From the IMG/VR virus record IMGVR_UViG_3300010885_014582, positions 1 through 64,000 of that record: 64,000 nucleotides of DNA; one strand, 5' to 3'. This DNA comes from a virus. The notes under the pieces were generated by a model, which was not told the DNA's origin, made no database searches, and saw only the letters and a program-made list of their open reading frames with translations. A program made the translations under genes and the position numbers. Position 1 is the first letter of the stretch, and each line of letters opens with the position of its first letter. Shown here in pieces: positions 5,114 to 58,058 of the stretch.

Positions 5114-6553
5114 TCAACTACCCTCTTCAGACAAATCAATTATGTCTGCGTACATGGCGTTAGCACCGTTCTGGTCGAGACCACCATTGGGCAACATGCG
5201 TGCCTGCTCACCAGCCTTCGAACCAAACAACCGAGACAACACGCCACTGGAACCACGGGCTTCAACCTCGAAGCGGACTAGGTCACGGTTGTCGTTGATG
5301 TTCTTGAAGCGCTCTACCAGACTGAACAAGCGATCGATCTCACCAGACAGTGACGAGTCAAGACCCTGTCCTTCAAGTTCTTCAGCAAACCTAGCGAACA
5401 TCACACGACCTACTTGCATCTCTACAAGAGCACGCATTGCGGACTGAAGTTGATCCTTTGTGCGGATCTCAATCGGCAGAGAAAACGCACAGTCAGAATT
5501 TTCTTCAAATTGCGGACAACGGCTTGCCAAGTAACAATGATTGCACTGCCGTAAAGGGTTAGCGTTATAGCGCAAAACAGGCACTTGTTCGGGGTCAATT
5601 TCAATAGATTCCCCTTGTGCATCAACGGTTTGCGTGCCCATAGAGGTTATGTTCTCGATACCCATAATTGGTAGCAATGTTTTTTCATTGGCGTGCCGCC
5701 TCTTGGGGGGGTCAGTAACAATGTTTGGTACCCTCGGTGCCACACTTGGGGCATTATCGTTACCCCCTGGAATCATTATGATTGAGTTGTCATTATCGAG
5801 TGTGAACTCTTCCTCGTCATCGACATTCATAAGGTCATAGCCCCCAAAATTCTTGGTCTCCCATGCTCTCCACGATTGGATAGCAAGGTGTGCAACGGCG
5901 TTAACTTCGTCGTTGATGACAGCATCGTAGTCGACACCAAGGCGCTGTATATCTGCCCTGTGTCTCTTACGAACGCTGTCCTTTTGTTGTGCTGGGTATC
6001 TGTGTAGGGCGTGACCATCCCATACCTGTGTCTCTCCGTAACGGACAGCACTAGACCATGAAACTACAACTACTGCTTCCCAACCAACACGCTCGATGAC
6101 ATCTGGCTTGGATGTAAGACCAATGAGGTTAGTTCCCCAGCGCATAGCAATCTGCCCAATACGAGCAATGTTGCGACCTGTGATGGCTCGGTCACTAATG
6201 GCTACTCGACCGTACTTCTGGCACAGCCATGTCAAGCGCTCTAGGTCATCAGCGTCATTCCAGATGGGGACATACTTGTCTCCCATCCATGTACCGTCGT
6301 AGTCTGGTCTACCAATCACATAAGTTAAACTATCAATGTGCTCACGCACAAAAGAGTCGTACCGAGATAGGTCTTCATCGTTCTCTGAGACATACAGGAT
6401 GATCTCATTACCTTGGTACACAGCCGACAGGTCAATGACCTTGCGCTTGGGTACTGCGTAGTGAGTCAGGTTTATAGCAAAGCGTGTAACTCCTGCGCTA
6501 AGTAGCAACGAGCGGTAAGAACCTTTCTCGGCTCCACCAAAATATACTTTCAA
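5114..6553 (-). CDS. hypothetical protein: possible degenerate TGT-like barrel plus Cys4 cluster
   Basis: MKVYFGG start, SWSSAVRYG segment, C-terminal CNHCYLASRCP...C. Confidence 0.5.
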   Translation of the reverse strand: MKVYFGGAEKGSYRSLLLSAGVTRFAINLTHYAVPKRKVIDLSAVYQGNEIILYVSENDEDLSRYDSFVREHIDSLTYVIGRPDYDGTWMGDKYVPIWNDADDLERLTWLCQKYGRVAISDRAITGRNIARIGQIAMRWGTNLIGLTSKPDVIERVGWEAVVVVSWSSAVRYGETQVWDGHALHRYPAQQKDSVRKRHRADIQRLGVDYDAVINDEVNAVAHLAIQSWRAWETKNFGGYDLMNVDDEEEFTLDNDNSIIMIPGGNDNAPSVAPRVPNIVTDPPKRRHANEKTLLPIMGIENITSMGTQTVDAQGESIEIDPEQVPVLRYNANPLRQCNHCYLASRCPQFEENSDCAFSLPIEIRTKDQLQSAMRALVEMQVGRVMFARFAEELEGQGLDSSLSGEIDRLFSLVERFKNINDNRDLVRFEVEARGSSGVLSRLFGSKAGEQARMLPNGGLDQNGANAMYADIIDLSEEGS

Positions 6554-7012: not shown

Positions 7013-7481
7013 GCCAGCCTCGTTCTGCTTTTGCAAGCGCTTGGGAGTCAATTTCTTTGGAGAGTTCGTCCCATCCTCTGATTGTCTTGGATTCAACCCA
7101 TTCTGGTCGTCCAATTCTTGGTACGGAGACAAGGAGGGATGCAATTCCTTCATGAAGGGTTTTAGCAATGGTGGTTGGATCGTTGTCAACGAACCAGTCA
7201 ACTCGTCCGTATCCTGCTTGGATACTACGAACACGCTCCAGTTTGGCATCGGCAGATGTTTCATCAGTTAAATCAATCGATCCTGCTCTGTAGCCTTCAC
7301 GCTTGAGCCACTCCATAAGTATAGGTGTTTTGTCGGGCTTGATTCCTGTAGCAAGAACGCAGATGCGACCCTGATACTGCGAGAACAACATGTTCCATAG
7401 TTTTCTTCCTTCGTTAAGTGGTTGTCTTGCACCAAGTTCTTCTCCCTCTAATGCAAGTACATCAAAAGTGATGACTATCAC
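7005..7481 (-). CDS. HAD-fold-like protein, apparently lacking the DxD motif
   Basis: VITFDVL start; WFVDND near C-terminus. Confidence 0.45.
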   Translation of the reverse strand: MIVITFDVLALEGEELGARQPLNEGRKLWNMLFSQYQGRICVLATGIKPDKTPILMEWLKREGYRAGSIDLTDETSADAKLERVRSIQAGYGRVDWFVDNDPTTIAKTLHEGIASLLVSVPRIGRPEWVESKTIRGWDELSKEIDSQALAKAERGWHD

Positions 7482-7945
7482 TTCTTATACAATCCCATTG
7501 CAATGCGCTCTTGCTCTGCAACCCACGATCCAACAGGGCAATACATACAGAGATATTGGCGCTTATCTGGTGCGACACCAATCTTGCGACCAATAGTTTT
7601 TCCTTCGGAGCACCAATCAATGCAACCACCCTTAGGGCGGTCATGCTTGTTGTAGCACTTCAACGCATCGACTTTTAACTCATCTCGGAAGTCACGAATG
7701 TACACATCCATCTCTCCCAACTCATTCTTGAGAAGTGTTTCCATGTCCAGTTTTTCAGCAGTTTCTGGATCGGTACGGAAAATAGATGCACGACAGTTAT
7801 CAGGATCAGGCACCTGTGCATTGTGTCGATTGCAAAGTTCAATTAACTCTTGATCGTATTCTGGAGGTCCGTCATAGGGACGAAGTTTCCACATGACGCC
7901 ATGCGTCTTGCAGACGAGAAGGCGGTCGTAACCAGTTTCAGCCAT
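7478..7945 (-). CDS. Cys-rich hypothetical protein
   Basis: several Cys/His pairs (CKTH, CNRH, CYNKH, CMYC); AGGAG RBS. Confidence 0.6.
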   Translation of the reverse strand: MAETGYDRLLVCKTHGVMWKLRPYDGPPEYDQELIELCNRHNAQVPDPDNCRASIFRTDPETAEKLDMETLLKNELGEMDVYIRDFRDELKVDALKCYNKHDRPKGGCIDWCSEGKTIGRKIGVAPDKRQYLCMYCPVGSWVAEQERIAMGLYKK

Positions 7946-8002: not shown

Positions 8003-8218
8003 TTACATCGATGAAGAATTGTCTGCAATGATAGATGCGTCGTTGTGAACACGGTGTGCTAACTCTCGTGCTCGTGCTGGTGCACCAATGCCACGAAAAG
8101 TTCCCATGTGGGAGTTCTCACGAAACACAGAAGACTTCATACCGCTTGCTTCATGGTCAATTTTAATGTTCTTGTCGGGGTGTCCGTAGGACTCCAACCA
8201 AGGGTACATGTTTGCCAT
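8003..8218 (-). CDS. small hypothetical protein (array member)
   Basis: TAATG-coupled ORF. Confidence 0.55.
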   Translation of the reverse strand: MANMYPWLESYGHPDKNIKIDHEASGMKSSVFRENSHMGTFRGIGAPARARELAHRVHNDASIIADNSSSM

Positions 8219-8424
8219 TACAGCCCAGAGTCTGCCAGTGGGTGGCGGTCAGTGAAACTGTAAACCTCACCAGTTGGGAACTGAGACTTAGTTACTTGCT
8301 GGCGCAAGGTTGCTGAAGTTGGGTCAACCTCTCCACCACGATCTGGTGTGAGGGACTTGAACTTACCGTCTGTAGCGCCGAGGCGCATATCTCGGTTCAT
8401 TGAGCGGGAATCATTAACTGCCAT
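8218..8424 (-). CDS. small hypothetical protein (array member)
   Basis: ORF; contains VTKSQF. Confidence 0.6.
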   Translation of the reverse strand: MAVNDSRSMNRDMRLGATDGKFKSLTPDRGGEVDPTSATLRQQVTKSQFPTGEVYSFTDRHPLADSGL

Positions 8425-8443
8425 AGTACTTCTATTTTATCAG

Positions 8444-8743
8444 TTAGTTGGTTTGACTGCTGTATGTGTCCCCATTGGGGTTGCCATTTTTTTCGTAACT
8501 GGCTTGAGATGTAACAAAGGCATGACGCCGTGCTTCATTCTGGGCGTTTGCTCCTGAAAAATGACCAACCATTTTTTGACCCTCAAAAACTTGAGATATA
8601 AAACCATTTTCGTGATGACGAATCATAATATCTTGTTGTGGGTGTCCCCAGCGCTGGTTCTGCCATGGGCTTCTTGGCGTTGGTGTTGGATCTCTATGGG
8701 TGTCTCCATTTCCCCAAAGACCGTTTTTCTTATTTTTTCTCAT
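8444..8743 (-). CDS. small hypothetical protein (array member)
   Basis: ORF abutting upstream stop. Confidence 0.55.
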   Translation of the reverse strand: MRKNKKNGLWGNGDTHRDPTPTPRSPWQNQRWGHPQQDIMIRHHENGFISQVFEGQKMVGHFSGANAQNEARRHAFVTSQASYEKNGNPNGDTYSSQTN

Positions 8744-9010
8744 TTAGTTCTCCCAAACTTCACGGTGTTTTCTTTGTGCAAATGATTCAGTTGGATCGCC
8801 ATAACTTGACTTCTCTGATGGCTTTGCATCCCACAGTGCTTTGCGCTGGCGCTGTTCTTCTGTCCAGATAGGTGCTGTACTTACTGTAGTAGAGGTGCCC
8901 CACAGAGTGCGACGAGCGTTGCGGTCATGTGCACGGCTCCTCGGAGGAGATGTGATGGGTGCTGTGCCTGTGCTACCAGCACGAAGAATTGGGTCTTTCA
9001 TGGTTACCAT
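8744..9010 (-). CDS. small hypothetical protein (array member)
   Basis: ORF tiles the array. Confidence 0.5.
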   Translation of the reverse strand: MVTMKDPILRAGSTGTAPITSPPRSRAHDRNARRTLWGTSTTVSTAPIWTEEQRQRKALWDAKPSEKSSYGDPTESFAQRKHREVWEN

Positions 9011-9375
9011 GAACCCCGTCGTTCGTCAGGGTCAACTTCTCCACGAGAACTGCGTCCCATAGTGCGACTAGTTGACGGTGAGGTAATAGATGGAGATGCA
9101 CCACTTGATGCACCACCTCTGTTTTGCCATTTATCTGTAAAGTATCCAGCAGCAAGGCGAGCATTACGGGTGCTCAGTGCTTCTCCTGGCTTCATCATAC
9201 GGCTGTCTTTTGTGTCAACATATGCGCCTGGATCACCATAATCACGAGATGTGCCAGCATTAATGCTGGGAAGGTCAAACCCTTTAGGTGTGAACGATGG
9301 TGGATCTTTCCACAGTGTGGGTTGAACACCCAGTGTTTGCGGAGTTCCGATTCCTTGTTGGTATCTCATACCCAT
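9004..9375 (-). CDS. small hypothetical protein (array member)
   Basis: ORF tiles the array. Confidence 0.55.
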   Translation of the reverse strand: MGMRYQQGIGTPQTLGVQPTLWKDPPSFTPKGFDLPSINAGTSRDYGDPGAYVDTKDSRMMKPGEALSTRNARLAAGYFTDKWQNRGGASSGASPSITSPSTSRTMGRSSRGEVDPDERRGSW

Positions 9376-9674
9376 AATCCTTGCATTGAATAGCGACTTG
9401 ATGATTCACTGTTTGCGTCCATAAATCCATCACGGAACATAACTGGCGCACCAGATTGCCATGAACGGAATGTTGGAAAGTTGCGATCGAGAGTAAGGCA
9501 ATCAGACACGCTCATTGCTTGCTTTTGAATACCACGGGTCTGTGGGAACAACCCTTGTGGCACTACAGGGCGAATCTTTCGTATCTCCTCAGGCGTGGAA
9601 ATAGCAGACATGAGTGCTTGATCAACAAGCATCTCTTGCCTACTTTGCCATGGCTTATTGGGATACTGAGGCAT
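9366..9674 (-). CDS. small hypothetical protein (array member)
   Basis: ORF tiles the array. Confidence 0.6.
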   Translation of the reverse strand: MPQYPNKPWQSRQEMLVDQALMSAISTPEEIRKIRPVVPQGLFPQTRGIQKQAMSVSDCLTLDRNFPTFRSWQSGAPVMFRDGFMDANSESSSRYSMQGLWV

Positions 9675-9677
9675 TAT

Positions 9678-9887
9678 TTAACAACCTGAACGGGCTTTGT
9701 GAAATGGTGGAACACCAAATGTACGCTTTGGTTCAGATGCTTCTTCGTCTAGTTCTGATACATGACTAGCAATTTCAGAAGCATCAACGCCTCCCCATGC
9801 TGCTTTTTGTACAGCAATGTGATTAGCCATAATTGCTTCACGGTCAACACGACCAGCACCATTAGGACGGTGTACTCCACGGGGCAT
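9678..9887 (-). CDS. small protein with N-terminal RPNGAGRVDR motif
   Basis: MPRGVHRPNGAGRVDRE. Confidence 0.75.
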   Translation of the reverse strand: MPRGVHRPNGAGRVDREAIMANHIAVQKAAWGGVDASEIASHVSELDEEASEPKRTFGVPPFHKARSGC

Positions 9888-9890
9888 TAT

Positions 9891-10109
9891 TTATCCCTCT
9901 TCATTATTTTGTGGGACAGAAGGTGTATTGAAATACTCTTCAAGACGACCTTGCGCTTCTTGATGGTCGGCTCGTTGTGCCATGCGATGGTTGTGCACAT
10001 CAATACGGGCTTTGGTTAACGAAGAACTGAACAGTGGGTAACGCATTGGTTTAAATGAGTCACGGTCTACACGACCTGCACCATTAGGGCGATTTTTTCC
10101 ACGAGGCAT
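9891..10109 (-). CDS. small protein with N-terminal RPNGAGRVDR motif
   Basis: MPRGKNRPNGAGRVDRD. Confidence 0.75.
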   Translation of the reverse strand: MPRGKNRPNGAGRVDRDSFKPMRYPLFSSSLTKARIDVHNHRMAQRADHQEAQGRLEEYFNTPSVPQNNEEG

Positions 10110-10111
10110 GA

Positions 10112-10318
10112 TTATTTCTTCTTCTTCTTTGGGCGGGGGATACCTTGGGCTGGTGCCTCATCGGTGTCCTGTGAGTGGGTTACAGAAGGGTCTGCCTTCT
10201 TTGGTTGCATAGACGGGTGGTTCTGTCGAGGATCAAAGTTGACTCGGTAAACATTGCCTTCACGACTAACTTGTCGTCTTGGGCTTTGAGAAGTATCTTT
10301 ACCATCATTATTAGGCAT
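10112..10318 (-). CDS. small basic hypothetical protein (array member)
   Basis: GKDTSQSPRRQVSR; Lys-rich C-terminus. Confidence 0.6.
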   Translation of the reverse strand: MPNNDGKDTSQSPRRQVSREGNVYRVNFDPRQNHPSMQPKKADPSVTHSQDTDEAPAQGIPRPKKKKK

Positions 10319-10321
10319 TAC

Positions 10322-10543
10322 TTAGTAAGCACCTTTGGGATTTAGTTTGGCAGACTCAGGAAAATGAGCGTCTAATCCGCCGTCCATGTCATCCATAAGT
10401 TCTGGATTTTCTTTTTCATGCTTTTCGTAAGCCGTCATAGGTCGTGAATCCTGTGGATTCATTGTTTTTTTACTATAATTACCACCAAATGAAGCACGGT
10501 CAACACGACCAGCACCATTAGGACGGTGTTCTCCACGAGCCAT
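10322..10543 (-). CDS. small protein with N-terminal RPNGAGRVDR motif
   Basis: MARGEHRPNGAGRVDRA. Confidence 0.75.
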   Translation of the reverse strand: MARGEHRPNGAGRVDRASFGGNYSKKTMNPQDSRPMTAYEKHEKENPELMDDMDGGLDAHFPESAKLNPKGAY

Positions 10544-10722
10544 TATTTGTCTCCTTCATTGCGACTGTCTGGTCGATTATTTCCAAGTGCTTCATCCAAG
10601 TCAGGTAAGAACTTTTCTGGGTGTTGTTCATACATGTTTGGGAACTTACGATTTGCCGATGCAAGAAGATAGGCATCCCAATTTTCCCAAATTGGTTTAA
10701 ACTGATTGTTATTAAGAGTCAT
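10543..10722 (-). CDS. small protein (59 aa, not in ORF track)
   Basis: hand translation MTLNNNQFKPIWENW...; TAATG overlaps on both sides. Confidence 0.65.
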   Translation of the reverse strand: MTLNNNQFKPIWENWDAYLLASANRKFPNMYEQHPEKFLPDLDEALGNNRPDSRNEGDK

Positions 10723-10997
10723 TAGTTTTCGCCTCTTACACGGCGGTCTTGAACATCTTCAGCGATTCTAAAATATTGACTGTTTTGGAGTGCAGCGCCT
10801 TGACCAGATTCTCCTCCTACATACCTTTTACGGTTAGCAGGACCATATGCTTCGTCGTAGTCTGATTCTTCAGGGTTGTAGTTAACCCCACGAAGACCTT
10901 CATTGCGCTGTGCAAGCATCTCTTGTTGTGCGATCATTGCATTACGGGTGTTGAGGTATGGGTCAGCGATGTGCTGTCCCCTGTGGTTGTGTGCCAT
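10722..10997 (-). CDS. small protein with MAHxHR-IADPYL motif
   Basis: MAHNHRGQHIADPYLNTRNA; internal GESGQG. Confidence 0.7.
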   Translation of the reverse strand: MAHNHRGQHIADPYLNTRNAMIAQQEMLAQRNEGLRGVNYNPEESDYDEAYGPANRKRYVGGESGQGAALQNSQYFRIAEDVQDRRVRGEN

Positions 10998-11344
10998 TAC
11001 TGACCTTCTCTTCCTTTACGCACTGAAAACCCATGACCAGATTCACCAAATGCAAGTTTTGTGCGGTCAATAGGTGCATTAGTATCTGGCATAAGATCAG
11101 CATCAGTTGTGGTGTGTTGGTCTAGATAATCGTCGTATTCTTCTTGCATATTGCTACGACCTTGAAGACCTGGTGATTCAGATGAATTCATACCATAGAG
11201 ATTGCGAATAGTTCCTACATCAGTGCCTTGACGAGCCAACTGTGATATGTCAGCAATACGGGAGTAGTCAAGCCCTTGAATTCCTGCATTACGCTGTGTG
11301 AGGTATGGGTCTGCAATTGGGTTCATGCGGTGATCGTGTGCCAT
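10997..11344 (-). CDS. small protein with MAHxHR-IADPYL motif
   Basis: MAHDHRMNPIADPYLTQRNA; internal GESGHG. Confidence 0.7.
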   Translation of the reverse strand: MAHDHRMNPIADPYLTQRNAGIQGLDYSRIADISQLARQGTDVGTIRNLYGMNSSESPGLQGRSNMQEEYDDYLDQHTTTDADLMPDTNAPIDRTKLAFGESGHGFSVRKGREGQ

Positions 11345-11709
11345 TAGTAGGCTCCTGTCTTACTTAATTTTTTTGCCATTGGGGGCGATTTTGGAGATGG
11401 TTTTGGTTTACGAGGAACAGTCGTTCCTCCAGCAGGACCACGGAAGTCTCCTTCTCCGTCGTCCCCATTTTTTTTCGGCTGTTTAGGCTCTTTCTTCATG
11501 TAAGGCTTAACTACTGAGTTAGTTGATTCCTCATTGCCCCATTTTTTTGAAGGTGTCTTCTTATACTCAGAAGGGTTATTGTCCCATTCTTGCCAAGGAT
11601 GGTTGATTAACTGCTTATCAGAGTTTGGAATTGAAACTTTAAAACCCTTGCCATGTCTATCAGGCGAGAAAGGTGCCCTATATTCATTTGGATCAAAGCG
11701 AGAAGCCAT
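11344..11709 (-). CDS. Lys/Pro-rich hypothetical protein (array member)
   Basis: ORF with TAAAAT-N6-ATG leaderless start. Confidence 0.6.
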   Translation of the reverse strand: MASRFDPNEYRAPFSPDRHGKGFKVSIPNSDKQLINHPWQEWDNNPSEYKKTPSKKWGNEESTNSVVKPYMKKEPKQPKKNGDDGEGDFRGPAGGTTVPRKPKPSPKSPPMAKKLSKTGAY

Positions 11710-11727
11710 ATGAATATTTTAGACTAT

Positions 11728-12225
11728 TTAGCGCCAGCGTGGAGCGAGTGATTTCAACTGAGAACGGCGCTCAGGGCTAATCTGTGTTGCCTGATTAGGC
11801 TCGTCACCTCGTGGAATACCACGGGGACCTACTTTTCCGTCGTTTGTCAGACGGACAGGTTCAGCACCAACAGGAGAGAACCGCAAACCTTGTGCTTCTC
11901 TCTGTAGTCCTGTGTACATATTGAACTCTTCAGGCCAAAAGTAGTCAGTTGTATTGATTCTTTCACCTTTGTGAACACCACGGCTGTACTGGCGTGCGTT
12001 CATACGGCTTAGGGTGCCTAGAACTTTGTCTTGACGGCGGTTGGCGTCCATGGTGCCGAGGTATCCGTCTGGATACTGTGAATCTACCGCTGTGCGAAAA
12101 CCTGAAAGTTGTGCGTCTTTTCCGTTACGGAAGACAGGACTTGGTCCCATTGTGACAGCAGTGCCAACTCCAGGCGCTTGGGCTGGGCTGTTCCATGATG
12201 TAAATGTTGGTGTCTGCTGACTCAT
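11728..12225 (-). CDS. hypothetical protein (array member)
   Basis: YPDGYLGT...RGVHKGERI; PTF/PVFR near N-terminus. Confidence 0.65.
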   Translation of the reverse strand: MSQQTPTFTSWNSPAQAPGVGTAVTMGPSPVFRNGKDAQLSGFRTAVDSQYPDGYLGTMDANRRQDKVLGTLSRMNARQYSRGVHKGERINTTDYFWPEEFNMYTGLQREAQGLRFSPVGAEPVRLTNDGKVGPRGIPRGDEPNQATQISPERRSQLKSLAPRWR

Positions 12226-12374
12226 CCCCACATACCTCCTGCTGACATAGATGGTCCAAGAACCCCACCGCCACCGCCTATGGTGGAAACAGGGCGTGCA
12301 GAACGAGCAATTGCTTTCTTACGCTCATACCTTTGGAGGGTGCGTGATCTAGATCGTGGGTTCTTATTTACCAT
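12222..12374 (-). CDS. small basic protein (50 aa, not in ORF track)
   Basis: hand translation MVNKNPRSRSRTLQRYERKK...; ATGA overlap with next gene. Confidence 0.5.
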   Translation of the reverse strand: MVNKNPRSRSRTLQRYERKKAIARSARPVSTIGGGGGVLGPSMSAGGMWG

Positions 12375-12642
12375 TTTGATTATATGAAGAAGTGATGTCT
12401 TCCGAAGAGTCGTCAGGATTGAACTTATTAAGTGTTCCGCCCTGATAGGTGCCAGAGGTACCGTTAAAGGTCCCCCAGTGCGCTCCTGAGGGGCTTACAA
12501 GGTGTTCTGCGCCTGTGTTGTCCCTATGGACTGTAGCGCCCTGTGAGATGGCGCTGGAGGCTGTTTTAGCCCACTCGTTTCGTGAGGAACCAGTGGACTG
12601 ACCTTGTTGACGAAACTGACGCTGTCCTCGAAAGGTAGGCAT
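12364..12642 (-). CDS. small protein with MPTFxGxxxFR motif
   Basis: MPTFRGQRQFR. Confidence 0.7.
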   Translation of the reverse strand: MPTFRGQRQFRQQGQSTGSSRNEWAKTASSAISQGATVHRDNTGAEHLVSPSGAHWGTFNGTSGTYQGGTLNKFNPDDSSEDITSSYNQNGK

Positions 12643-13034
12643 TAGTACTCTTCACCTTTGTATTCAATCTCAGATGGTGTCCCAAGGTGACCATGCTCCA
12701 TGAAACGGGCTACAGCGGTAGTTGGGTCCATGCCATGGTCTTGAATAAACGCTCCGACATGCTTATTGTACTTTTTTCCTCTAGTGCCAAAAGCACCTGC
12801 AACGATCTGCTCTGCATGCTTTGCAGTTGAGTAGTCATGACCAGCCAAACGACCACGGATGGCTGATTCTGGGCTTACTAGTTCCTGCCAAGCCTTTTGC
12901 TGGCGACGAGAGGCACGGCGGGAAAGACCTGTGCGCTCGTATGGATCAGGGGCATCGCCAAAAGAACCAACAGGGCGTCGGTCAATGCCATCTGCGCCTG
13001 TTTCTAAGGGTGTTACATAGGAGTCAGGATCCAT
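12642..13034 (-). CDS. hypothetical protein (array member)
   Basis: start reassigned to TAATG-coupled ATG 13034 (MDPDSY). Confidence 0.6.
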   Translation of the reverse strand: MDPDSYVTPLETGADGIDRRPVGSFGDAPDPYERTGLSRRASRRQQKAWQELVSPESAIRGRLAGHDYSTAKHAEQIVAGAFGTRGKKYNKHVGAFIQDHGMDPTTAVARFMEHGHLGTPSEIEYKGEEY

Positions 13035-13204
13035 TAGGAATCTCTTTCGTCGTATTTCTGGTGGCAATTAAGGCACATTGGGTCACCTGAGTAACTCTTT
13101 TCTGTGGCTTCTTCGTTGCACCCTGCACCTGTGCATTTTTCACTACTGCGAGAGGTACCTGTTCCCTGTCGACGGAATACTGGCTTTCCTTGAAAAGTTG
13201 GCAT
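13034..13204 (-). CDS. small protein with MPTFxGxxxFR motif and Cys4 finger (56 aa, not in ORF track)
   Basis: hand translation MPTFQGKPVFRRQGTGTSRSSEKCTGAGC...MCLNCH. Confidence 0.7.
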   Translation of the reverse strand: MPTFQGKPVFRRQGTGTSRSSEKCTGAGCNEEATEKSYSGDPMCLNCHQKYDERDS

Positions 13205-13392
13205 TACCAACCTTCTCTTTGAGATTTGCGTCGCATAATATCTTCAAATTCATTGTCCAAAGGACTCCCAATAGGGTGACCACTTTCCCCAATGCGTTCT
13301 TTCTTGGGAGTTCCATCATGTGGGTTGTCGCCACGACCTGCGTTAGCGCCATTAGCGCCACGAAATACTGCATTACCGTTAAATGTTGGCAT
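13204..13392 (-). CDS. small protein with MPTFxGxxxFR motif
   Basis: MPTFNGNAVFR; internal GESGH. Confidence 0.7.
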   Translation of the reverse strand: MPTFNGNAVFRGANGANAGRGDNPHDGTPKKERIGESGHPIGSPLDNEFEDIMRRKSQREGW

Positions 13393-13441
13393 AAAAATCC
13401 TTTATTTATATAATATCTCAGAAACAGTACTCGTGTGAGTA

Positions 13442-13792
13442 CTAAGTCCAGCGAGCCATATCGTTGTCAAGTTGTGCATCATATGCTTGGTTTGCTGGTT
13501 CAGGAGAAGGGAATTGTGCACTACTAATGCCATGTCCTCCGCTTTCACCAGATCGCATAACCTGACTTGTCGCATAACTTCTTGCCATAGATGCCATGGC
13601 ACTTCTGGCTCCCATTCCTGCGCCAGCAGTTGCGGCTCCAGCGCCAGCGGCTTCAGCGCCAGCGGCTCCAGCAGTTGCGGCTCCAGCAGTTGCGGCTCCA
13701 GCAGTTGCGGCTCCAGCAGTTGCGGCTCCAGCGCCAGCGGCTTCAGCGCCAGCGGCTAAACCCAATGCGGCTAGTATTGCTGGTAAAGGCAT
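13442..13792 (-). CDS. Ala/Gly-repeat low-complexity protein
   Basis: AGAAT/AGAEA repeats; AGGAG RBS; GESGGHG and ISSAQF motifs. Confidence 0.65.
   Translation of the reverse strand: MPLPAILAALGLAAGAEAAGAGAATAGAATAGAATAGAATAGAAGAEAAGAGAATAGAGMGARSAMASMARSYATSQVMRSGESGGHGISSAQFPSPEPANQAYDAQLDNDMARWT
13620..13757. repeat. 15-bp/21-bp coding tandem repeat (GCGGCTCCAGCAGTT units)
   Basis: directly visible tandem copies. Confidence 0.9.
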
Positions 13793-13800
13793 AAGTCTCC

Positions 13801-14091
13801 TTATTTAATCACTGGTTTAAATGATATCGCAGAAATGGTATCTCCATTTTCACCTTTGATGTCATCAAATCCAATGATGAAAGTAAGGTCAATCCCTCTT
13901 GGTGCTACGAAACCACGGGAAATAGCGGCGGCTTTAGCCGCTTGGTTAACTGCTGATGCTCCAATAGCACGCATTTTAGGCAATTGCCCTGCGTTAATGG
14001 CACGAGCCAAAATGGATCCGACGGATTGAGGGTTACTAGAACCCGACACCTTCAAGACATCGTCAATAGTTGTGTTCAATTCTTGTGACAC
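13801..14091 (-). CDS. spoVS: stage V sporulation protein S family protein
   Basis: VLKVS..SNP.SV...RAIGASAVNQAAKA.AISRGFVAPRGIDL...F.DI...ISAI.F. Confidence 0.9.
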   Translation of the reverse strand: MSQELNTTIDDVLKVSGSSNPQSVGSILARAINAGQLPKMRAIGASAVNQAAKAAAISRGFVAPRGIDLTFIIGFDDIKGENGDTISAISFKPVIK

Positions 14092-47835: not shown

Positions 47836-48915
47836 TTAGGCAGTTGGTACTGCGCCACCGAGTGTGTTGATGATAACACGAGATTCGTGTGTGATGACAC
47901 CGAAGCCCCAGATTGCGTACCATGACAAGCCGTGCTCACGACCGAAGTCGATTACACCACCATCACGGAGTTCAACTGGAAGGGCAATTGCTTGTCCGAA
48001 TGCGTTGTCACCGATCATGATTGAAGAGAACGAGTTCGAAAGAACTGCGTCACGGGTACTTGTTGCTGGGTTGGAGTCAACCAAACCAAGACCAGACTTA
48101 ACCTGGGTGGTTTCAATGAAGACCACATCGTACAAACGACCAATTTCACCGAGCATGAAGTTACCTGGAGCGGCATACTTTGTTACTTCGATGAATTCTG
48201 GCCAGTCACGAAGCGCACGGCTCTGTGAAGGGTGTACGAAACATACATAGGTATCGCCAAGGCGAGGGATGTTCTGGTTAGCCAAGATCTCAACTGCGTC
48301 CTTGACGGTTGCAGGTGACATGTAGCCAGGTGCGCCTGAGTTACCAGCGGCTGCGTACTCGTAAGGAGCACGAGGACCACGGGTAGAAGGAGCGGTGCGT
48401 CCGAAGACTACTGACGGTGCAACGGCAGAGCCGCCACCGAAAGGAACACCTGATGCGTACAGCGTGTTACGAGCCTGGATGTCCATGGACTGAGCCATGT
48501 GACGACCAAGAAGGCGTGAAGACGAAGCCATAACATCATCGAAAGAAGCGTTGAGGAGGAGTTCGGTAACCGAAACTGCCTTACCTTGTTCTTTAACAGT
48601 GATCTGGATCTGACTTGCTGAAAGTGCTGAAGGCTCCATACGGGTACCTTCTGTCAATTCTGCACCTGTTGACTCGTCCGTTGCAAGGTTGTTGTAACGC
48701 ATGAAGTTAATGGTGAGACCTGGCATGACGCCCAGTTCCGTCTTCTTGACGGCAAACTGTTCAAAGCGAAGCACTGGCATCGCCTGGAAAAGAATTTCTT
48801 TCGACCAGATAGTCTGGATCGCTGGGCTGAGAGCGGTGCCGCCAACGGTATAGCCAGTTGCGCTTGTCGCACCTGCCGTTGTTACTGCGCCACCTACGGG
48901 ACCTGGAAGGGCCAT
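47836..48915 (-). CDS. major capsid protein (N4-gp56 family-like)
   Basis: F.QFA.K...G.TI.F.RY..L...LTEG...HP....L...GEIG....V.F.ET...DFGR...WY. Confidence 0.9.
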   Translation of the reverse strand: MALPGPVGGAVTTAGATSATGYTVGGTALSPAIQTIWSKEILFQAMPVLRFEQFAVKKTELGVMPGLTINFMRYNNLATDESTGAELTEGTRMEPSALSASQIQITVKEQGKAVSVTELLLNASFDDVMASSSRLLGRHMAQSMDIQARNTLYASGVPFGGGSAVAPSVVFGRTAPSTRGPRAPYEYAAAGNSGAPGYMSPATVKDAVEILANQNIPRLGDTYVCFVHPSQSRALRDWPEFIEVTKYAAPGNFMLGEIGRLYDVVFIETTQVKSGLGLVDSNPATSTRDAVLSNSFSSIMIGDNAFGQAIALPVELRDGGVIDFGREHGLSWYAIWGFGVITHESRVIINTLGGAVPTA

Positions 48916-48949: not shown

Positions 48950-49753
48950 TTAGAAACGGCCTCTAGGAGACCGTGCGTTCAGGAGCCTATCCCGCATTTT
49001 TGAGTACTGATCCATCGACATATTGCGGATATCATCCGCACTTAACTGTTGGTATTCCGTTTGAGTTTCCATTGGCCCAACAGGAGGCGCCGTTACGGGT
49101 GCCCCCCTCAAGCGACCTTGCTGTTGCTGAGTCGCTTGCTGGATTGATTCAATAATAGCAGATGAACGCTCACGCAGTACAGCAATTGATTGTTCGATCT
49201 CATCCTCGCTGTTTCCTGACACAAGATCGATCAATTCTGGGATGATTGATTCTTGTTCTGCTTGCAGACGAGTATTGCGATAATGGGTCAAAGCCTGCAT
49301 CTGGCGCTCTTTATCGAGCAATGCTTCTTGGGCTTGGCGTTGTGCTTCAATGGTTTCAAGGCGTGCTTGCCACTCTTGCTCAACGGTATTGATGCGCTGA
49401 TTGAATTCATCTTCCTGTTTAAGGAGAAGTTCTTTAGCGCTGAGTTCGTCGATTTCACGCTGACGCAGAATTTCCGATTCTTTTTTAGAAAGGGCTTCTG
49501 CTTGCTTGCGGGCTTCTTCTCGCTCCTTGGCAATAAGTGACATCTGCTCTTCCATGTTTTTCACACGGACATCTGCCTCTTCAAGACGCTTGTACATCTT
49601 GTCTTTTTCCTGCTTACGGATACCTTCTACCTCATCTTCAGAGAAGAGTTTGGCGTTTGTACTTTTCATTGCGTCTTCAACAAATTGCTCCACTTGTGGA
49701 GAATCCATTGGGACAGAAATAATGTCCCCTTCGGGGACGGTGTTCTTGGACAT
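48950..49753 (-). CDS. capsid scaffolding protein
   Basis: long coiled coil ending DIRNMSMDQY..MR.RL; between portal and capsid. Confidence 0.75.
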   Translation of the reverse strand: MSKNTVPEGDIISVPMDSPQVEQFVEDAMKSTNAKLFSEDEVEGIRKQEKDKMYKRLEEADVRVKNMEEQMSLIAKEREEARKQAEALSKKESEILRQREIDELSAKELLLKQEDEFNQRINTVEQEWQARLETIEAQRQAQEALLDKERQMQALTHYRNTRLQAEQESIIPELIDLVSGNSEDEIEQSIAVLRERSSAIIESIQQATQQQQGRLRGAPVTAPPVGPMETQTEYQQLSADDIRNMSMDQYSKMRDRLLNARSPRGRF

Positions 49754-49806: not shown

Positions 49807-51501
49807 TTATGATTCTTCGTCAGGCACACGACGCTGGGCGAACCGTGCTCCGTATGCCTTTGCTACAAGTTGATTTACCATCTGCTCTTCTTGTGGAGTG
49901 ACCACTGCACCAGGCATTGGTCCACCACTATCAGGAGAGCCTCCTGTGGAAGATACATTAGCACCTCCAGCAGAAGCCATTTCTGGACCATCAGATCCAG
50001 GAATCATTCCAGTAGCCAGCATTACTGCTTGGCTGATCTGGGCACGGAGCATATCAAGTGCTCCTTGATCGACTGCGTCGTCTTGCAGTTCCTCAAAAAT
50101 TTCGTCCATCTTCTCGTTCGGGAATTCTTCTCCAAGAAGGCGCAAAGCACCACGCTTGGATTCCAAACCAAGAGCCATCTTGGCTTGAACCTCATTGAGT
50201 TTGATGAGTTGGTCGACAGGGAGTGGCTCAGGCCAGTGAACCATTGTCTTGTAAGTAAGGGGGTCAGCAGGGTCTAGTGCCGTTGCTTGATCACGCTCAG
50301 GCATCGCTGCTTTACTTGGATCATATTGAAGCATCTGTGGTTCAAACACAGCAGCAGTACGAATGATAATTTCATTTATACGCTCAAGACCTTTAGTAAA
50401 GTGAACCTTTTTCATCATGAAACGGTTCATCATTGGCTGATACTGAATTGCCAAAGCAACACCAGAGGTGTTAGATACAGGTTGGAATTGACCAAGAGCG
50501 GTCTCAGGTACACCAGTCATCTCATGCATAGAACGCTTAATGAAAGTGATGTATTCAAGAGCGCCAGCCATGTTTCCACTGGACTCAAGGTTGAATACGC
50601 TGGCGTCCTTAGGAAGACCTGCCCAAACTTTCTTAGGTCCACGCTCCAATTGAGAAGCCTTAGCGCCAGTAATAATAGTTACAGGAGCGGCGTGGTAGTT
50701 GATGATGTCAGAAACTTCAACCATCTTCTCATTGAGTTCACGGTTAAGTGGGATGATATCCCAGATGTCTGACTGACCCCATGGAGAAGAAGAGATAGAG
50801 GTGTTGGGGATATGCACAACAGGGATAGTTCCCAAAGCGTTGTCGTATTGATCAATTAGTTCGTCATTGATGAATTGTTGAATCATGTCATCAGAAAGAA
50901 TTTCGGTAAAGGTGTAAACCTGACGAGTTCCTTCAGGAGATGTACCCCAGAAACGGTATTTAAGTTTAAAGCGAAGCAATCGGTCACGGTCATGTGGGTG
51001 ATACTCAGGGAAGCAATGTGCTGGGTTCAACGGGATAACACGGATACGACCTTCAACAGGGATACCAACGCTGTCTACATATGGTTCTTCATATGCAATC
51101 TTTACAAAACAGTCACCAGTAACGGATGCTAGTTGACCCATTTCCCAAAGGACATAATGCTTGTTGTTATGGTTTTCCCATACTTGCGCCAGCAAATGAG
51201 GGATGATGGCTGAGTTTTGTTCTGGGCAACGAAATTGAACACCTTTACCAAAGCAAAAGTTGGTGATGTAGTCAGACATCGTGCGGACATAGTTAAGGTA
51301 GAACTGGGACTCACCCATTTCACGACGGTATGACCAGTGGTGACCAAGGTACCAAGCCCATGCGGCTGAGTAACGGTTTAAGCGAGGTCCATGTACTTCA
51401 AACTCTTCGTCTGCTAATTCCACCAAACCAAGTGGGGAGATAGCAACAGTGAGGTCACTCGATGCTGCTCTATAAGATGGTGACCAGAAGTCCATTGCCA
51501 T
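49807..51501 (-). CDS. portal protein (SPP1 gp6-like)
   Basis: NY...GD, IPVVHIPN...WG.SD, GVP..ALG...SGVAL. Confidence 0.88.
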   Translation of the reverse strand: MAMDFWSPSYRAASSDLTVAISPLGLVELADEEFEVHGPRLNRYSAAWAWYLGHHWSYRREMGESQFYLNYVRTMSDYITNFCFGKGVQFRCPEQNSAIIPHLLAQVWENHNNKHYVLWEMGQLASVTGDCFVKIAYEEPYVDSVGIPVEGRIRVIPLNPAHCFPEYHPHDRDRLLRFKLKYRFWGTSPEGTRQVYTFTEILSDDMIQQFINDELIDQYDNALGTIPVVHIPNTSISSSPWGQSDIWDIIPLNRELNEKMVEVSDIINYHAAPVTIITGAKASQLERGPKKVWAGLPKDASVFNLESSGNMAGALEYITFIKRSMHEMTGVPETALGQFQPVSNTSGVALAIQYQPMMNRFMMKKVHFTKGLERINEIIIRTAAVFEPQMLQYDPSKAAMPERDQATALDPADPLTYKTMVHWPEPLPVDQLIKLNEVQAKMALGLESKRGALRLLGEEFPNEKMDEIFEELQDDAVDQGALDMLRAQISQAVMLATGMIPGSDGPEMASAGGANVSSTGGSPDSGGPMPGAVVTPQEEQMVNQLVAKAYGARFAQRRVPDEES

Positions 51502-52524: not shown

Positions 52525-53139
52525 CTATTTTTTAGAATCTCGTTCTTGCATAAAGGATTGGAAGGGTGCTCCCGTGTATGGATCAAACTTACTAGCCACG
52601 GTAATTGCCTTATTTGCAACGGTTTTAGCCTGCTGTGGTGTCAACTGTTTACCTACCGCAAGGGTGTGTAAAGCGCCCAAAGCGTAAGAGGAACCTGTAC
52701 CTACAGCGTAAATACCATTGCTATCGCTAGTCCAAGAGTAGTCACCCTCAAGAATATAGATAGTCCCATGGACAACTACAATGATGGTTGACCCTTGTTC
52801 AGCAATATGTTCTTTGTCATCTTTTGCTGAGGAATAACCCTGCTCGTCAAAACAAGACCTAAGAGAAGGTATGAACTGACGGGTAATGAACTGATCAAGT
52901 TTCTTACCAAGAGTATTGGCAGGTGGTATTGGTGGAACAAACACATGCTGAAGGATGTTGATTGCTCGAACATCTCCAGCAGCGCCCATGATGTACTTAC
53001 CATTAGCGGCAATCTTGGATGTTCCAGCCCCAAGGGTAGTTACCTGATATGCCGACCCTGAGTCGTCAAATGAGGCAATACGACTATCTGTGCAAAGTAC
53101 CGCATAGTTGTCACCTTGGATACCCACAATAGTTGTCAT
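52525..53139 (-). CDS. HslV/proteasome-beta-like Ntn threonine protease
   Basis: start at 53139 gives M-TTIVG; DSR, SKI, GAAG, AVGTGS..ALGAL, DPYTG. Confidence 0.85.
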   Translation of the reverse strand: MTTIVGIQGDNYAVLCTDSRIASFDDSGSAYQVTTLGAGTSKIAANGKYIMGAAGDVRAINILQHVFVPPIPPANTLGKKLDQFITRQFIPSLRSCFDEQGYSSAKDDKEHIAEQGSTIIVVVHGTIYILEGDYSWTSDSNGIYAVGTGSSYALGALHTLAVGKQLTPQQAKTVANKAITVASKFDPYTGAPFQSFMQERDSKK

Positions 53140-54287
53140 TAGGCGGTGTATTCCTTGTTGTGGTACATCGCCCAACCATCTCGGATGGGGATCATCTCAA
53201 GGTTGAATTCGGCATCACCATCTTTGTAGTTGACTACACAGAGACCCTGTTGCCAGTTCTCAGTGATTGTCATCGGGCGACCGTCAAGGTCGATACCACC
53301 TTTAGTAGATGGTACAGCGCCATCAACACGAGCAAGGCAACCAGCAGAAGCCGCAAGGATGGTCTTACGACCGTCATAGTCTTCACGGGTTACTTCTGCC
53401 CACTCACGGCGGTGGATGTGTCCATAGAGCACTGAGGTCTTTTCATTAGCCAAATACATGTGTGCTGTAGAGCCGTTGCTTTTAACACGAGTACCATGGA
53501 TAACTTTCAACTTCTGATTAATCCAATAGTAACCAGCAGGGTAGCCAGGAACATATTGAATATTGAAATCATTAAAACGACAGAGGAACGGAACCGAAAG
53601 TACGGGCCAGTTGTCTGGTGTGTCTCCACGCCTCAAACCAAAAGAAGCCTTTGCATTATCTAATGTGTAGTTAACAAGACGCTCTTCATGGTTTCCAGCA
53701 AGCCAAACAATTTCAGCGTCAGGAGCAGCAGCACGAATACGAGCCATAAGAATTGTTGCGTAGTCAATTGATTTTTGAGTTGTCAATGCATAGGCAGGAC
53801 TAAGTCGGTATTTACCAAACTCAGCAAAGTCCAAGTTGTCACCATGCATGACTACTTTTTCAGGCTTTAAATCCTTGATCATTGCAACGCAGATGTCGAT
53901 AGCCCGCTCATCATGGATACCTTCAAGTTCACCTAATGCATTACGAAAGTAGCCGATCTGCATGTCAGGTAGGACTACTGCTGTATTCCACTCTGTTTTC
54001 TTTGGTGTTTTAGTTACATTGTTTGTTGGCAATTTAACAGCAGGACCTTGGTTAACAGGATCCCATTCAGGACCTTCTGCCCACTTTGGTGAGAACTGAA
54101 TAGCCGCAAGGTCGTGAATTTGTGCTTCACCATCTTGGTCTTTAGTTAGTGATTGATAAAGAGATACACGCTTTACTGAACCAATTTCGTCAATGTCAAT
54201 CTTCTGACGATCAAGAATCTCAAGAAGTTTTCCAAGAGCCTTAGCGTTGTTTGCTGGTTTGTCTAGATCATTCGCCAAGTTGCTCAC
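53139..54287 (-). CDS. calcineurin-like metallophosphoesterase
   Basis: PDMQ, GDNLD, GNHE, HG, GHIHR. Confidence 0.85.
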   Translation of the reverse strand: MSNLANDLDKPANNAKALGKLLEILDRQKIDIDEIGSVKRVSLYQSLTKDQDGEAQIHDLAAIQFSPKWAEGPEWDPVNQGPAVKLPTNNVTKTPKKTEWNTAVVLPDMQIGYFRNALGELEGIHDERAIDICVAMIKDLKPEKVVMHGDNLDFAEFGKYRLSPAYALTTQKSIDYATILMARIRAAAPDAEIVWLAGNHEERLVNYTLDNAKASFGLRRGDTPDNWPVLSVPFLCRFNDFNIQYVPGYPAGYYWINQKLKVIHGTRVKSNGSTAHMYLANEKTSVLYGHIHRREWAEVTREDYDGRKTILAASAGCLARVDGAVPSTKGGIDLDGRPMTITENWQQGLCVVNYKDGDAEFNLEMIPIRDGWAMYHNKEYTA

Positions 54288-56495: not shown

Positions 56496-58058
56496 TTATC
56501 TGAAAAACGGGCTAGTTGAGGCTTGAACCTGTGGCATCGTATCCATAACTGTCAAAGCACAAGCAATAGCAAGGCTGTCAGGATAGTCGTCAAAAGCACC
56601 ACGCTCATTGGGAGCAGCCGCTAAAAGGTACGGTCCTTTATAGATTTTTTCAAGGTCAGACATTTGTTGGTTAAAGCGCTTCCATGTGCGGGTACGCCTA
56701 GCCTTAGAATGTCCTGGAAGAATTAACTGATCTCTCTGAATTAATTCGGTTAAATGCACCCAGCGCTCGTTCTGAGCCTTTGAATCCGATGAGATGGGCA
56801 ATACCTCAATATCAGGCAGTAGAAGCGCCAGACGCTCTGCTACAGCGCCTCCGACGCCCTGTGAGTCCACTCCCACCCTTAGGAGGTCGTAATGTCGCAG
56901 GAAATCAATAATATGGAAATATTGTGCTTCCCATTCCTCATTGTTAATCTCAAGCCAGTTGAGGACACGGTGTTCATAGAAACCAAATGGGTCTGGATGA
57001 TCCCAGTCAACCCATACAACGGTAACTACTGTGGAGTCATTTGAGCGAGCCACATCGATTCCTGCCACACAGGGTGTACGCCACCATTCTTTAACCAAAG
57101 GCATGGACTGGTCGTACAGACGATCCATACGCTCTTCAGTAACGAACATTCCTTTTTCAAGAATGAACTTATTGCAGTACGACATCTGGAACTCGTCCGA
57201 GTCTTCCCCGATGCGTAACTTCTCTTTAGAGATAAACTTTGAGTAGTTGTCGTTGTACTTTGAGGCAACCCTATGGTCGTACTCAAAGTGAGCCTCACGG
57301 AAACGCTTTCCACCGTTAGCGGAACGACGCTTGTTGTACTGAATCATACGGTAGAAATAGGATTTCTGACGGTTAGCAGTTCCTGTAAGAGCAATCGATC
57401 CGTTGTTGAACGCCAGCATGGGTTTGATTGACTTAGCGATCATGGTCTCATCGGCTTCCTGAGCCTCATCGATAAGGACGAAGTGGTAAGTCTTAGACTC
57501 AATCTTTGCCTTAGGGTTACATGTCTGCATACGGCAGAGTGATCCAGCATGCTTCAAAGTGATTAGGCGACCACGACCACGGGTACCACCACCTGTTGCC
57601 TTGTCATCAATCTCAGGGTCAAGAAGGAACTGCATAGCGTGGTCACTAGTTAGTTTTGTGACAATACGACTAAATACAGTTTCTGCCTGCTCTTCGGTAG
57701 GAGCAAACACGCCTACCCAAAAACCTCTGTCAAACTTCTCTAACCATGTCGGATAGATGGGTGCCAACTTAGGAAGGATGACCATCATGCCAGCCATAAC
57801 TGCTGAAAGAACTTCTGACTTACCTGACTGACGGGTAGCGACCACAGTCAACTCATCACCATCTCCCAGAACTACAGATTCAATAATGCGGTAGGCAATA
57901 GGTATCTGGTAGGGAAAGAACTCAATATCACAGAACTCTTCTGTAAAGATTATAATTCGTTTTACTAGTTGGTCAATAAATTCCGCAGAAGTTTCGTCCA
58001 GTTCTTCGGGGTCACCAAAGTCTTCCAGTGGTTCGACTAGGTCTTCCTGCTCGATCAT
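56496..58058 (-). CDS. terminase large subunit
   Basis: RQSGKS, IDEAQ, LTGT, GID.A...DSTV, DDYPDS. Confidence 0.92.
   Translation of the reverse strand: MIEQEDLVEPLEDFGDPEELDETSAEFIDQLVKRIIIFTEEFCDIEFFPYQIPIAYRIIESVVLGDGDELTVVATRQSGKSEVLSAVMAGMMVILPKLAPIYPTWLEKFDRGFWVGVFAPTEEQAETVFSRIVTKLTSDHAMQFLLDPEIDDKATGGGTRGRGRLITLKHAGSLCRMQTCNPKAKIESKTYHFVLIDEAQEADETMIAKSIKPMLAFNNGSIALTGTANRQKSYFYRMIQYNKRRSANGGKRFREAHFEYDHRVASKYNDNYSKFISKEKLRIGEDSDEFQMSYCNKFILEKGMFVTEERMDRLYDQSMPLVKEWWRTPCVAGIDVARSNDSTVVTVVWVDWDHPDPFGFYEHRVLNWLEINNEEWEAQYFHIIDFLRHYDLLRVGVDSQGVGGAVAERLALLLPDIEVLPISSDSKAQNERWVHLTELIQRDQLILPGHSKARRTRTWKRFNQQMSDLEKIYKGPYLLAAAPNERGAFDDYPDSLAIACALTVMDTMPQVQASTSPFFR

Follow-up and report, generated by a model that had tools for sequence, protein, structure and literature searches.

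The capsid targeting sequence (CTS) of phage T4 is a short peptide, MKTYQEFIAE, and in encapsulins unrelated cargo proteins reach the inner side of an HK97-fold shell by means of a short terminal cargo-loading peptide. The internal proteins of T-even phages form a very diverse group with the targeting sequence as their sole common feature (PMC3012670). Here we describe an array of small genes in a phage (IMG/VR record IMGVR_UViG_3300010885_014582) in which short N-terminal peptides, called tags in the following, recur in front of otherwise different protein bodies. The DNA analysed, which we call the window, is the first 64 kb of this 94,013-bp record, which is complete according to CheckV; the array is located at positions 8003-13792. 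Nine of its 21 genes are tagged (four PRG, two AH and three PTF, as we named the classes). That these are portable N-terminal tags of several classes on variable cargo is well supported by sequence comparison.

The 21 open reading frames (ORFs) of the array are all encoded on the minus strand, are 50-165 codons long and follow each other nearly without spacing. Eight junctions share one base (TAATG), one is an ATGA, three overlap by 7-11 nt and five lie at 0-3 nt; the longer gaps are three (18, 19 and 49 nt). About 21 short, tightly packed, often TAATG-coupled ORFs of this length had been predicted originally, and a tiling gene caller recovers all 21, with the starts of 11728-12225, 12642-13034 and 13034-13204 moved to coupled ATGs. 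A longest-ORF caller chooses instead a 76-amino-acid ORF in an alternative frame over both of the neighbouring PTF genes (13143-13373, minus strand), which we rejected because homologues and tags favour the PTF frame. Array genes have orthologues in up to 66 related loci, and because of these orthologues in related contigs we conclude that the genes are real.

The encoded proteins had been proposed to be disordered, which agrees with the charge-hydropathy analysis after Uversky: 17 of the 21 are classified as disordered versus 24% of the remaining genes in the genome. Order-promoting residues account for 18% in the array versus 30% in the other genes. The array proteins are high in Gly, Ala, Ser, Arg and Pro and low in Leu, Ile, Val and Cys (Cys 0.3%), and their bodies are hydrophilic and 40-150 amino acids long. 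None of the 21 proteins has a match in Pfam, PHROGs or PADLOC, and a megablast search of the array against deposited phages returned nothing. Three metatranscriptome libraries contain long contigs of 90-99% identical relatives that span the array and its flanks with even depth. These contigs are possibly carried-over DNA and therefore give no sign of transcription.

All-against-all BLASTP confirmed the three repeated classes of N-termini that had been noticed in the original prediction. The PRG genes 9678-9887, 9891-10109 and 10322-10543 match each other with E values of 4e-8 to 6e-8 and the AH genes 10722-10997 and 10997-11344 with 5e-7. The PTF genes 12364-12642, 13034-13204 and 13204-13392 match with 5e-5 and 1e-3, the third pair reaching only 0.05. 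A fourth PRG gene, 10112-10318, was found in addition. The consensus of PRG is M-[AP]-[RK]-G-x-D-T-x-x-H-P-N-R-x-V-x-R, of which the window variant RPNGAGRVDR is a subtype; that of AH is M-x-x-[DN]-H-R-[GM]-x-P-[VI]-G..., with the window form MAHxHR..IADPYL..RNA; and that of PTF is M-P-T-F-x-G-x-x-V-F-R. Each class contains an invariant or near-invariant Arg, and the tags are hydrophilic, extended-looking and rich in Pro, Gly, Arg and His. Searched against the whole 94-kb genome, the tag profiles match in array genes only and there at the N-termini. The tags contain no Sec or Tat signal (a hydrophobic core after a basic N-terminus); a hydrophobic N-terminus is present only in the untagged gene 13442-13792. 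A metal site of the amino-terminal copper- and nickel-binding type in the AH tag was considered and dropped, since the class as a whole does not keep a His at position 3.

To relate the array to other phages, IMG/VR was searched with the SpoVS-like protein encoded directly upstream of it, which yielded 80 related loci. In 52 of these, the SpoVS-like gene and a 155-amino-acid gene bracket an interval of 3.4-8.6 kb with 10-21 small genes (747 in total, 511 unique). Three genes form a core: C (11728-12225, 165 amino acids) and c (9366-9674, 102 amino acids) are present in 52 of 52 arrays and k (8218-8424, 68 amino acids) in 51 of 52. They invariably follow each other as C, c, k, and the remainder of the array is variable. 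Orthologues of the three were found in 66, 58 and 52 loci, respectively, and each core gene has a single N-terminus and a single body. The tagged genes occupy fixed slots, PTF before C, AH after C and PRG just before c, with genes of the same tag adjacent to each other. The same order is found in the Streptomyces phage GiJojo, where a handful of small genes and then homologues of C (gp168) and k (gp171) follow SpoVS. Since SpoVS, C and k are present in GiJojo, this island core is, judged from gene content, older than the tags and predates the lake lineage to which the window belongs. A "peptidase" and a "hydrolase" downstream of the GiJojo island were compared with the border genes of the window and are not homologous to them.

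For the 52 arrays, tags were clustered by their first 18 residues with a threshold derived from a shuffled null, and bodies separately from residue 26 to the end (BLASTP, E 1e-3). About one third of the cassettes begin with PRG, AH or PTF. The PRG tag is found on 84 unique proteins with bodies of 37 families, AH on 45 with 23 families and PTF on 22 with 12 families. Using one representative per body family, the information content is high up to position 17 for PRG, about 19 for AH and 11 for PTF and then falls to background level. Mean identity between body families is 47% (PRG), 34% (AH) and 47% (PTF) inside the tag versus 7%, 7% and 11% in the segment of the same length that follows. Of the five-residue words that recur in the largest numbers of body families, most are tag words, and all occurrences of these tag words lie within residues 1-25. 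The PRG and AH motifs are always within the first 25 residues, and tags sit at the N-terminus or at most about 10 residues from it.

Conservation is seen in the amino acids. The conserved Arg, Gly and Val positions use three to five synonymous codons each, and for the near-invariant Arg at PRG position 13 CGT, CGC, CGA, CGG and AGA are all used. In the three PRG copies of the window with the RPNGAGRVDR core, this core differs at synonymous sites only, and similarity ends directly behind the tag. The upstream regions with the ribosome-binding sites are not conserved. Because conserved residues are encoded by many synonymous codons, we conclude from these alignments that selection acts on the peptide and not on DNA or RNA.

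The same body can carry different tags. In one body family of about 110 residues, the member in locus L037 is preceded by a PRG tag, that in L059 (70% identity over 114 residues) by a PTF tag and that in L025 (42%) by an AH-like one. A 94% identical body of 109 residues starts with AH in L054 and with PRG in L055, where an in-frame deletion joined the front of the neighbouring PRG gene to the body. Two further families occur with both PRG and AH. Whole cassettes are exchanged as well: compared with the closest relative, L002, homology of the window breaks at 13787/13204, 10093/9676 and 8745/8425. All of these breakpoints coincide with gene ends or fall within the first five tag codons, and the cassettes enclosed by them differ. 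Contigs of 90-95% identical relatives from public sequencing runs likewise skip whole genes. The original proposal of a tag-plus-variable-cargo architecture is thus strengthened by the sharp boundary, selection on the peptide, the many body families, one body with three tags and the cassette exchange; homologues conserved over their full length are not what is seen, with 7-11% identity behind the tag and one body under different tags.

According to the comparison with relatives, recombination at tags is one route by which the gene library is reshuffled. Breakpoints inside the first tag codons would also fit DNA-level recombination linkers that promote shuffling of cassettes, as in mosaic phage genomes. 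This explanation, which we group with precursors of ribosomally synthesized and post-translationally modified peptides (RiPPs), is very improbable: codons vary while residues are kept, so that the DNA sequence is not conserved, and recombination at tags is a by-product, i.e., a consequence of tag conservation and not its cause. Ordinary tandem paralogy would be another origin of the array. A few ancestral genes would have been duplicated and their disordered bodies would have drifted, with the N-terminus constrained by translation initiation or coupling and no common reader. Genes with the same tag are indeed adjacent, in fixed slots, and disordered sequence diverges fast. Yet synonymous codons vary freely and ribosome-binding regions are not conserved, and therefore the constraint is not at the level of RNA or initiation. 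Moreover, one body with different tags cannot be produced by drift, and strong purifying selection on a common function is required to keep 34-47% tag identity over 12-37 body families. We thus consider paralogy alone improbable. In our reading, the array is a library of cassettes with fast turnover, which encode small and mostly disordered proteins, around the fixed core C, c and k.

The distribution of the PRG tag was followed with a profile of 46 PRG-tagged proteins, none of which has a Pfam match. Among 1.84 billion proteins the profile finds 115 clusters (50% identity) at E <=1e-3. All of these are 50-151 amino acids long, and in 112 the match starts at residue 1. Of the remaining three, two probably have mis-called starts and one is an extended variant. 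A homologue search with the PRG alignment returned nine hypothetical proteins. A strict PRG pattern, back-translated into a DNA pattern, is present in 26 stretches in IMG/VR and absent from all 185,579 cellular genomes searched; a search of 50,697 deposited phages with a strict PRG-type query returned nothing. Of five extra contigs that were checked, four share the major capsid protein (65-81% identity) and the fifth is a 27-kb fragment. As far as database searches go, the PRG tag is confined to one uncultured phage lineage, and its strict form is without a cellular counterpart. This restriction suggests that the reader of the tag is encoded by the phage. No description of these tags was found in the literature searched, and no virion proteomics was found there for the Streptomyces relatives or for DSL-LC01, a metagenome-assembled phage.

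Two observations concern the tags in a wider sense. GiJojo gp166 (L108 8453-8692), a small disordered protein encoded beside SpoVS, contains RPDPYLSRNA at residues 14-23, which is similar to IADPYL..RNA of the window AH tag. Because of this segment, part of the AH tag may be older than the lake lineage. In the window, the 59-amino-acid protein encoded by 10543-10722 (minus strand) begins with MTLNNNQF and resembles the (N/H)-L-(S/N)-x-x-Q-F tag of late-region proteins of this genome (56033-56434 and, beyond the window, 76654-77100 and 78420-78980). This Q-F tag is found in only 2 of the 511 unique array proteins.

Short motifs are also shared inside the array. A bipartite motif, PTF(x)SW ... 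PV(M)FR, is present in core C (residues 6-33) and core c (residues 67-81, as PTFRSW..PVMFR), where it is the most conserved block, and the PTF tag is a compact version of it. In its general form, PTF...VFR, it has five matches in the genome (the three PTF tags, C and c), all in the array, versus 0.055 expected by shuffling. The motif GESG(H/Q/G)G is internal in 13442-13792, 13204-13392, 10997-11344 (GESGHG) and 10722-10997 (GESGQG), proteins that are otherwise unrelated beyond their tags. These four are its only occurrences in the genome (0.07 expected by chance), and relatives have the versions QESGHG and QGSGHG. A third motif, AP(A/P)xGI(P/K)RP, is found in 10112-10318 (residue 59, as APAQGIPRP) and 11728-12225 (residue 136) and also in L013, L016 and L039. 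It occurs behind PRG, AH-like and degenerate tags, twice in one L016 protein, and several database relatives have a C-terminal CxxC...CxxC, zinc-ribbon-like end after it. That the bodies are unrelated, as claimed before, holds largely; the AH pair has the internal GESGxG in common, and 8003-8218 and 8444-8743 are paralogues (38% over 50 amino acids).

Such shared motifs fit an explanation in which the virion is not involved. The tags would be cytoplasmic docking motifs, short and linear, through which disordered proteins of changing repertoire are tethered to a single hub, which could be a host protein or a product of the island (SpoVS-like, C, c, k or the 155-amino-acid Cys-rich protein), and an assembly or condensate would form during replication. 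PTF...VFR, which is internal in c, speaks for this, as do GESG and APAxGIPRP in the bodies and the island core (SpoVS, C and k), which is older than the tags. On the other hand, PRG and AH are always in the first 25 residues, where an ordinary linear motif need not be, and if the tag itself acts, four to ten of them per phage, each on a different body, would be superfluous. Docking is the main rival of the explanation ranked first below and only slightly less probable, also at clearly less than even chances.

The individual genes are described here in the direction of transcription; all are on the minus strand. The upstream border is the conserved SpoVS-like gene (13801-14091; Pfam PF04232, 1.4e-19; PDB 2EH1, 4.7e-11), the anchor of the array in the 80 related loci. 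The array starts with the untagged gene 13442-13792 (116 amino acids), which has Ala/Gly/Thr repeats behind its hydrophobic N-terminus and is missing from L002. Also missing there, with the breakpoint at 13204, is the PTF gene 13204-13392 (62 amino acids; profile E 5.5e-9), whose tag comprises approximately codons 1-11 (13360-13392). The next PTF protein (13034-13204, 56 amino acids) has two Cys pairs in its body (Cx4C and CxxC), and its ATG is TAATG-coupled at 13204. It is followed by an untagged gene (12642-13034, 130 amino acids) with orthologues in nine loci and by the third PTF gene (12364-12642, 92 amino acids; profile E 2.2e-7) with orthologues in ten. A small basic protein (12222-12374, 50 amino acids, isoelectric point 12) belongs to a family of 45-50 amino acids that precedes core gene C in many arrays. 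For the C protein, AlphaFold2 gave a predicted local distance difference test score (pLDDT) of 53, too poor for a structure search, and the ESM Atlas gave no usable match.

Downstream of C, an untagged basic protein (11344-11709, 121 amino acids) precedes the AH pair 10997-11344 (115 amino acids; tag approximately codons 1-19, 11288-11344; profile E 1.4e-9) and 10722-10997 (91 amino acids; profile E 3.2e-9). After the 59-amino-acid gene come the four PRG genes. Three are of the RPNGAGRVDR subtype: 10322-10543 (73 amino acids; tag approximately codons 1-17, 10493-10543), 9891-10109 (72 amino acids) and 9678-9887 (69 amino acids). The second of these is replaced by other PRG cassettes in L002, with the breakpoint 10093 inside the tag. 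The fourth gene, 10112-10318 (68 amino acids; profile E 1.2e-6), is near the lineage consensus. Core gene c is followed by three untagged variable genes (9004-9375, 8744-9010 and 8444-8743), the last of which is replaced by 28 nt in relatives, and core gene k by the untagged 8003-8218 (71 amino acids), the paralogue of 8444-8743, which is skipped exactly in one relative. The downstream border is the conserved Cys/His-rich gene 7478-7945 (155 amino acids), found in 52 loci with 51-100% identity. Its protein has no Pfam or PHROG match; the AlphaFold2 model has a pLDDT of 62, and the best Foldseek match against PDB (E 0.14) is not usable.

The genome has a GC content of about 45% and encodes two WhiB proteins and an Rpf-like transglycosylase. 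Its nearest cultured relatives by capsid protein are the Streptomyces phages BRock, GiJojo and Alone3 (58-60% identity), and the stretch is best represented in freshwater or lake metagenome DNA runs. Taken together, the encoded proteins, the relatives and the metagenomes indicate that the host is an actinobacterium, in line with the actinophage assignment made earlier. From 82.8 kb down to 1.8 kb, almost all genes are on the minus strand, and in the direction of transcription their order is terminase (56496-58058), HslV-like peptidase, portal (49807-51501), putative scaffold (48950-49753), capsid (47836-48915), tail, replication and recombination (DnaB-like, SNF2, PolA, RecA, resolvase, Cas4-like and PDDEXK), SpoVS-like and array. 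Beyond the array follow the 155-amino-acid gene, a DpdA-like transglycosylase, a nucleotidase, WhiB and the Rpf-like gene. The immediate neighbours are thus SpoVS-like, PDDEXK, HNH, Cas4-like, resolvase and RecA on one side and DpdA-like, nucleotidase and WhiB on the other, the remaining neighbours being without a match. This position inside a block for replication, recombination and DNA modification (SpoVS-like, PDDEXK, Cas4-like and RecA; DpdA-like and nucleotidase) is a further point for docking to a cytoplasmic hub. A scan for promoters and terminators found fewer promoter-like sites than in shuffled sequence and therefore yields no operon boundaries. The DpdA-like tRNA-guanine transglycosylase gene (5114-6553, minus strand; phrog_887, 1.9e-33), which has a counterpart in the GiJojo relative, suggests that the phage DNA carries 7-deazaguanine modifications.

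The HslV/proteasome-like peptidase gene (52525-53175, minus strand; Pfam PF00227, 2.6e-8; phrog_1040, 7e-27) lies between the terminase and portal genes. Its nearest deposited match is in DSL-LC01, an Actinomycetia phage (45% identity); it is present in three of five related contigs checked and is not among the matches in the searched BRock-like Streptomyces relatives. The strict PRG-type query, too, is without a match in deposited phages, and this parallel would fit tags that mark substrates, either as degrons for a protease such as the HslV-like one or as targets of phage ADP-ribosyltransferases or acetyltransferases. The invariant or near-invariant Arg of every class is a further point for this reading. 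In the case of degrons, disordered proteins could be broken down by the peptidase with no unfoldase, which would set the timing of their action. However, its position between terminase and portal makes a head role as likely, the link between tag and enzyme is co-occurrence in one lineage and nothing more, and a degron leaves the diversity and retention of the bodies unexplained. A substrate role is thus unlikely.

Which function the tags serve can only be inferred, and this applies to head loading with injection as well as to the substrate roles, both suggested originally. We tentatively rank first, at clearly less than even chances, that the tags are address labels for loading of the procapsid, as is the T4 CTS. 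This ranking is based on the match to the T4 CTS as the one well-studied precedent, the restriction to one lineage and the small, hydrophilic, disordered cargo. The tags would serve as labels, for address or docking, that a lineage-specific partner recognises; the mini-proteins would be recruited into the assembling head and leave it with the DNA at infection, and small size and disorder would allow the cargo to pass through the tail channel. In an extended version, which we consider possible though rather speculative, PRG, AH and PTF, together with the Q-F tag on enzymes encoded elsewhere, form a multi-address system that loads enzymes and a rapidly reshuffled library of disordered mini-proteins into the capsid, from which they would be co-injected. 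Its reader would be an unrecognised head component, and the system would correspond, in actinophages, to the T4 CTS, but with several classes and with cargo that passes the tail without unfolding.

Several findings weigh against head loading. The phage has three or four tag classes versus one in T4, and the Pro/Gly-rich, extended-looking tags are unlike the T4 sequence. The array proteins contain no recognisable cleavage motif, none of the head-region genes scanned encodes a classical prohead protease, and the HslV-like gene is the only peptidase gene near the head genes. The array is located among replication, recombination and DNA-modification genes without an evident promoter of its own. 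In addition, a free N-terminus is not strictly needed, since the PTF motif is internal in core c and split in core C, and the core of the extended PRG variant starts after nine preceding residues. Docking motifs fit these points almost as well.

If the tags are address labels, they would show how an abundant group of lake phages delivers or organises a large, fast-changing set of host-directed proteins and would offer, as the T4 sequence has done, a ready-made handle of 11-19 residues with which foreign proteins can be loaded. Whatever reads them, the arrays are a clean natural case of a constant short peptide with the rest of the protein replaced. The PRG tag by itself accounts for more than 100 clusters, so that synthetic peptides can be used to look for the partner directly. 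Furthermore, about 6 kb per genome is real, conserved, disordered coding sequence without a match in any domain library searched.

Among described systems, RiPP precursors have formally the same architecture, a conserved leader with a variable rest and several genes in a row, and the original prediction had drawn this analogy. It is not supported here: no RiPP-type modifying enzyme and no leader-recognition gene (RiPP recognition element) was found within about 6 kb on either side, and the "cores" are far longer (40-150 amino acids), hydrophilic, nearly free of Cys, not rich in Cys, Ser or Thr and without a repeated core pattern. The short linear motifs with which viral proteins dock on cellular hubs are closer in that the bodies here are likewise disordered mosaics (PTF..VFR, GESG and GIPRP), whereas PRG and AH are limited to the N-terminal end. 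Because the strict PRG pattern is absent from all cellular genomes searched, this form of the tag copies no host signal. The phage capsid protein is of the same fold class as the encapsulin shell (Pfam capsid families), but encapsulin peptides are mostly C-terminal with another consensus, and no encapsulin-type shell gene is involved here.

The T4 internal proteins (IPI-III and Alt) and their CTS are the closest in design. There, too, a short conserved N-terminal peptide is the sole common feature of diverse small proteins, and the T-even internal-protein locus is likewise hypervariable, with whole-gene cassettes differing between close relatives. By inspection, none of the three consensus peptides resembles the T4 sequence. 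T4 has one tag class and the phage described here three to four, IPI* of T4 is compact while the cargo here is mostly disordered, and here the host is an actinobacterium and no gp21-type protease was found. By analogy, the array thus resembles the T4 CTS locus in architecture and evolution but is not a family member by sequence. New here are the three tag classes on disordered cargo, the swapping of tags on one body, the fixed C-c-k scaffold and the PTF motif that the tags have in common with the core genes.

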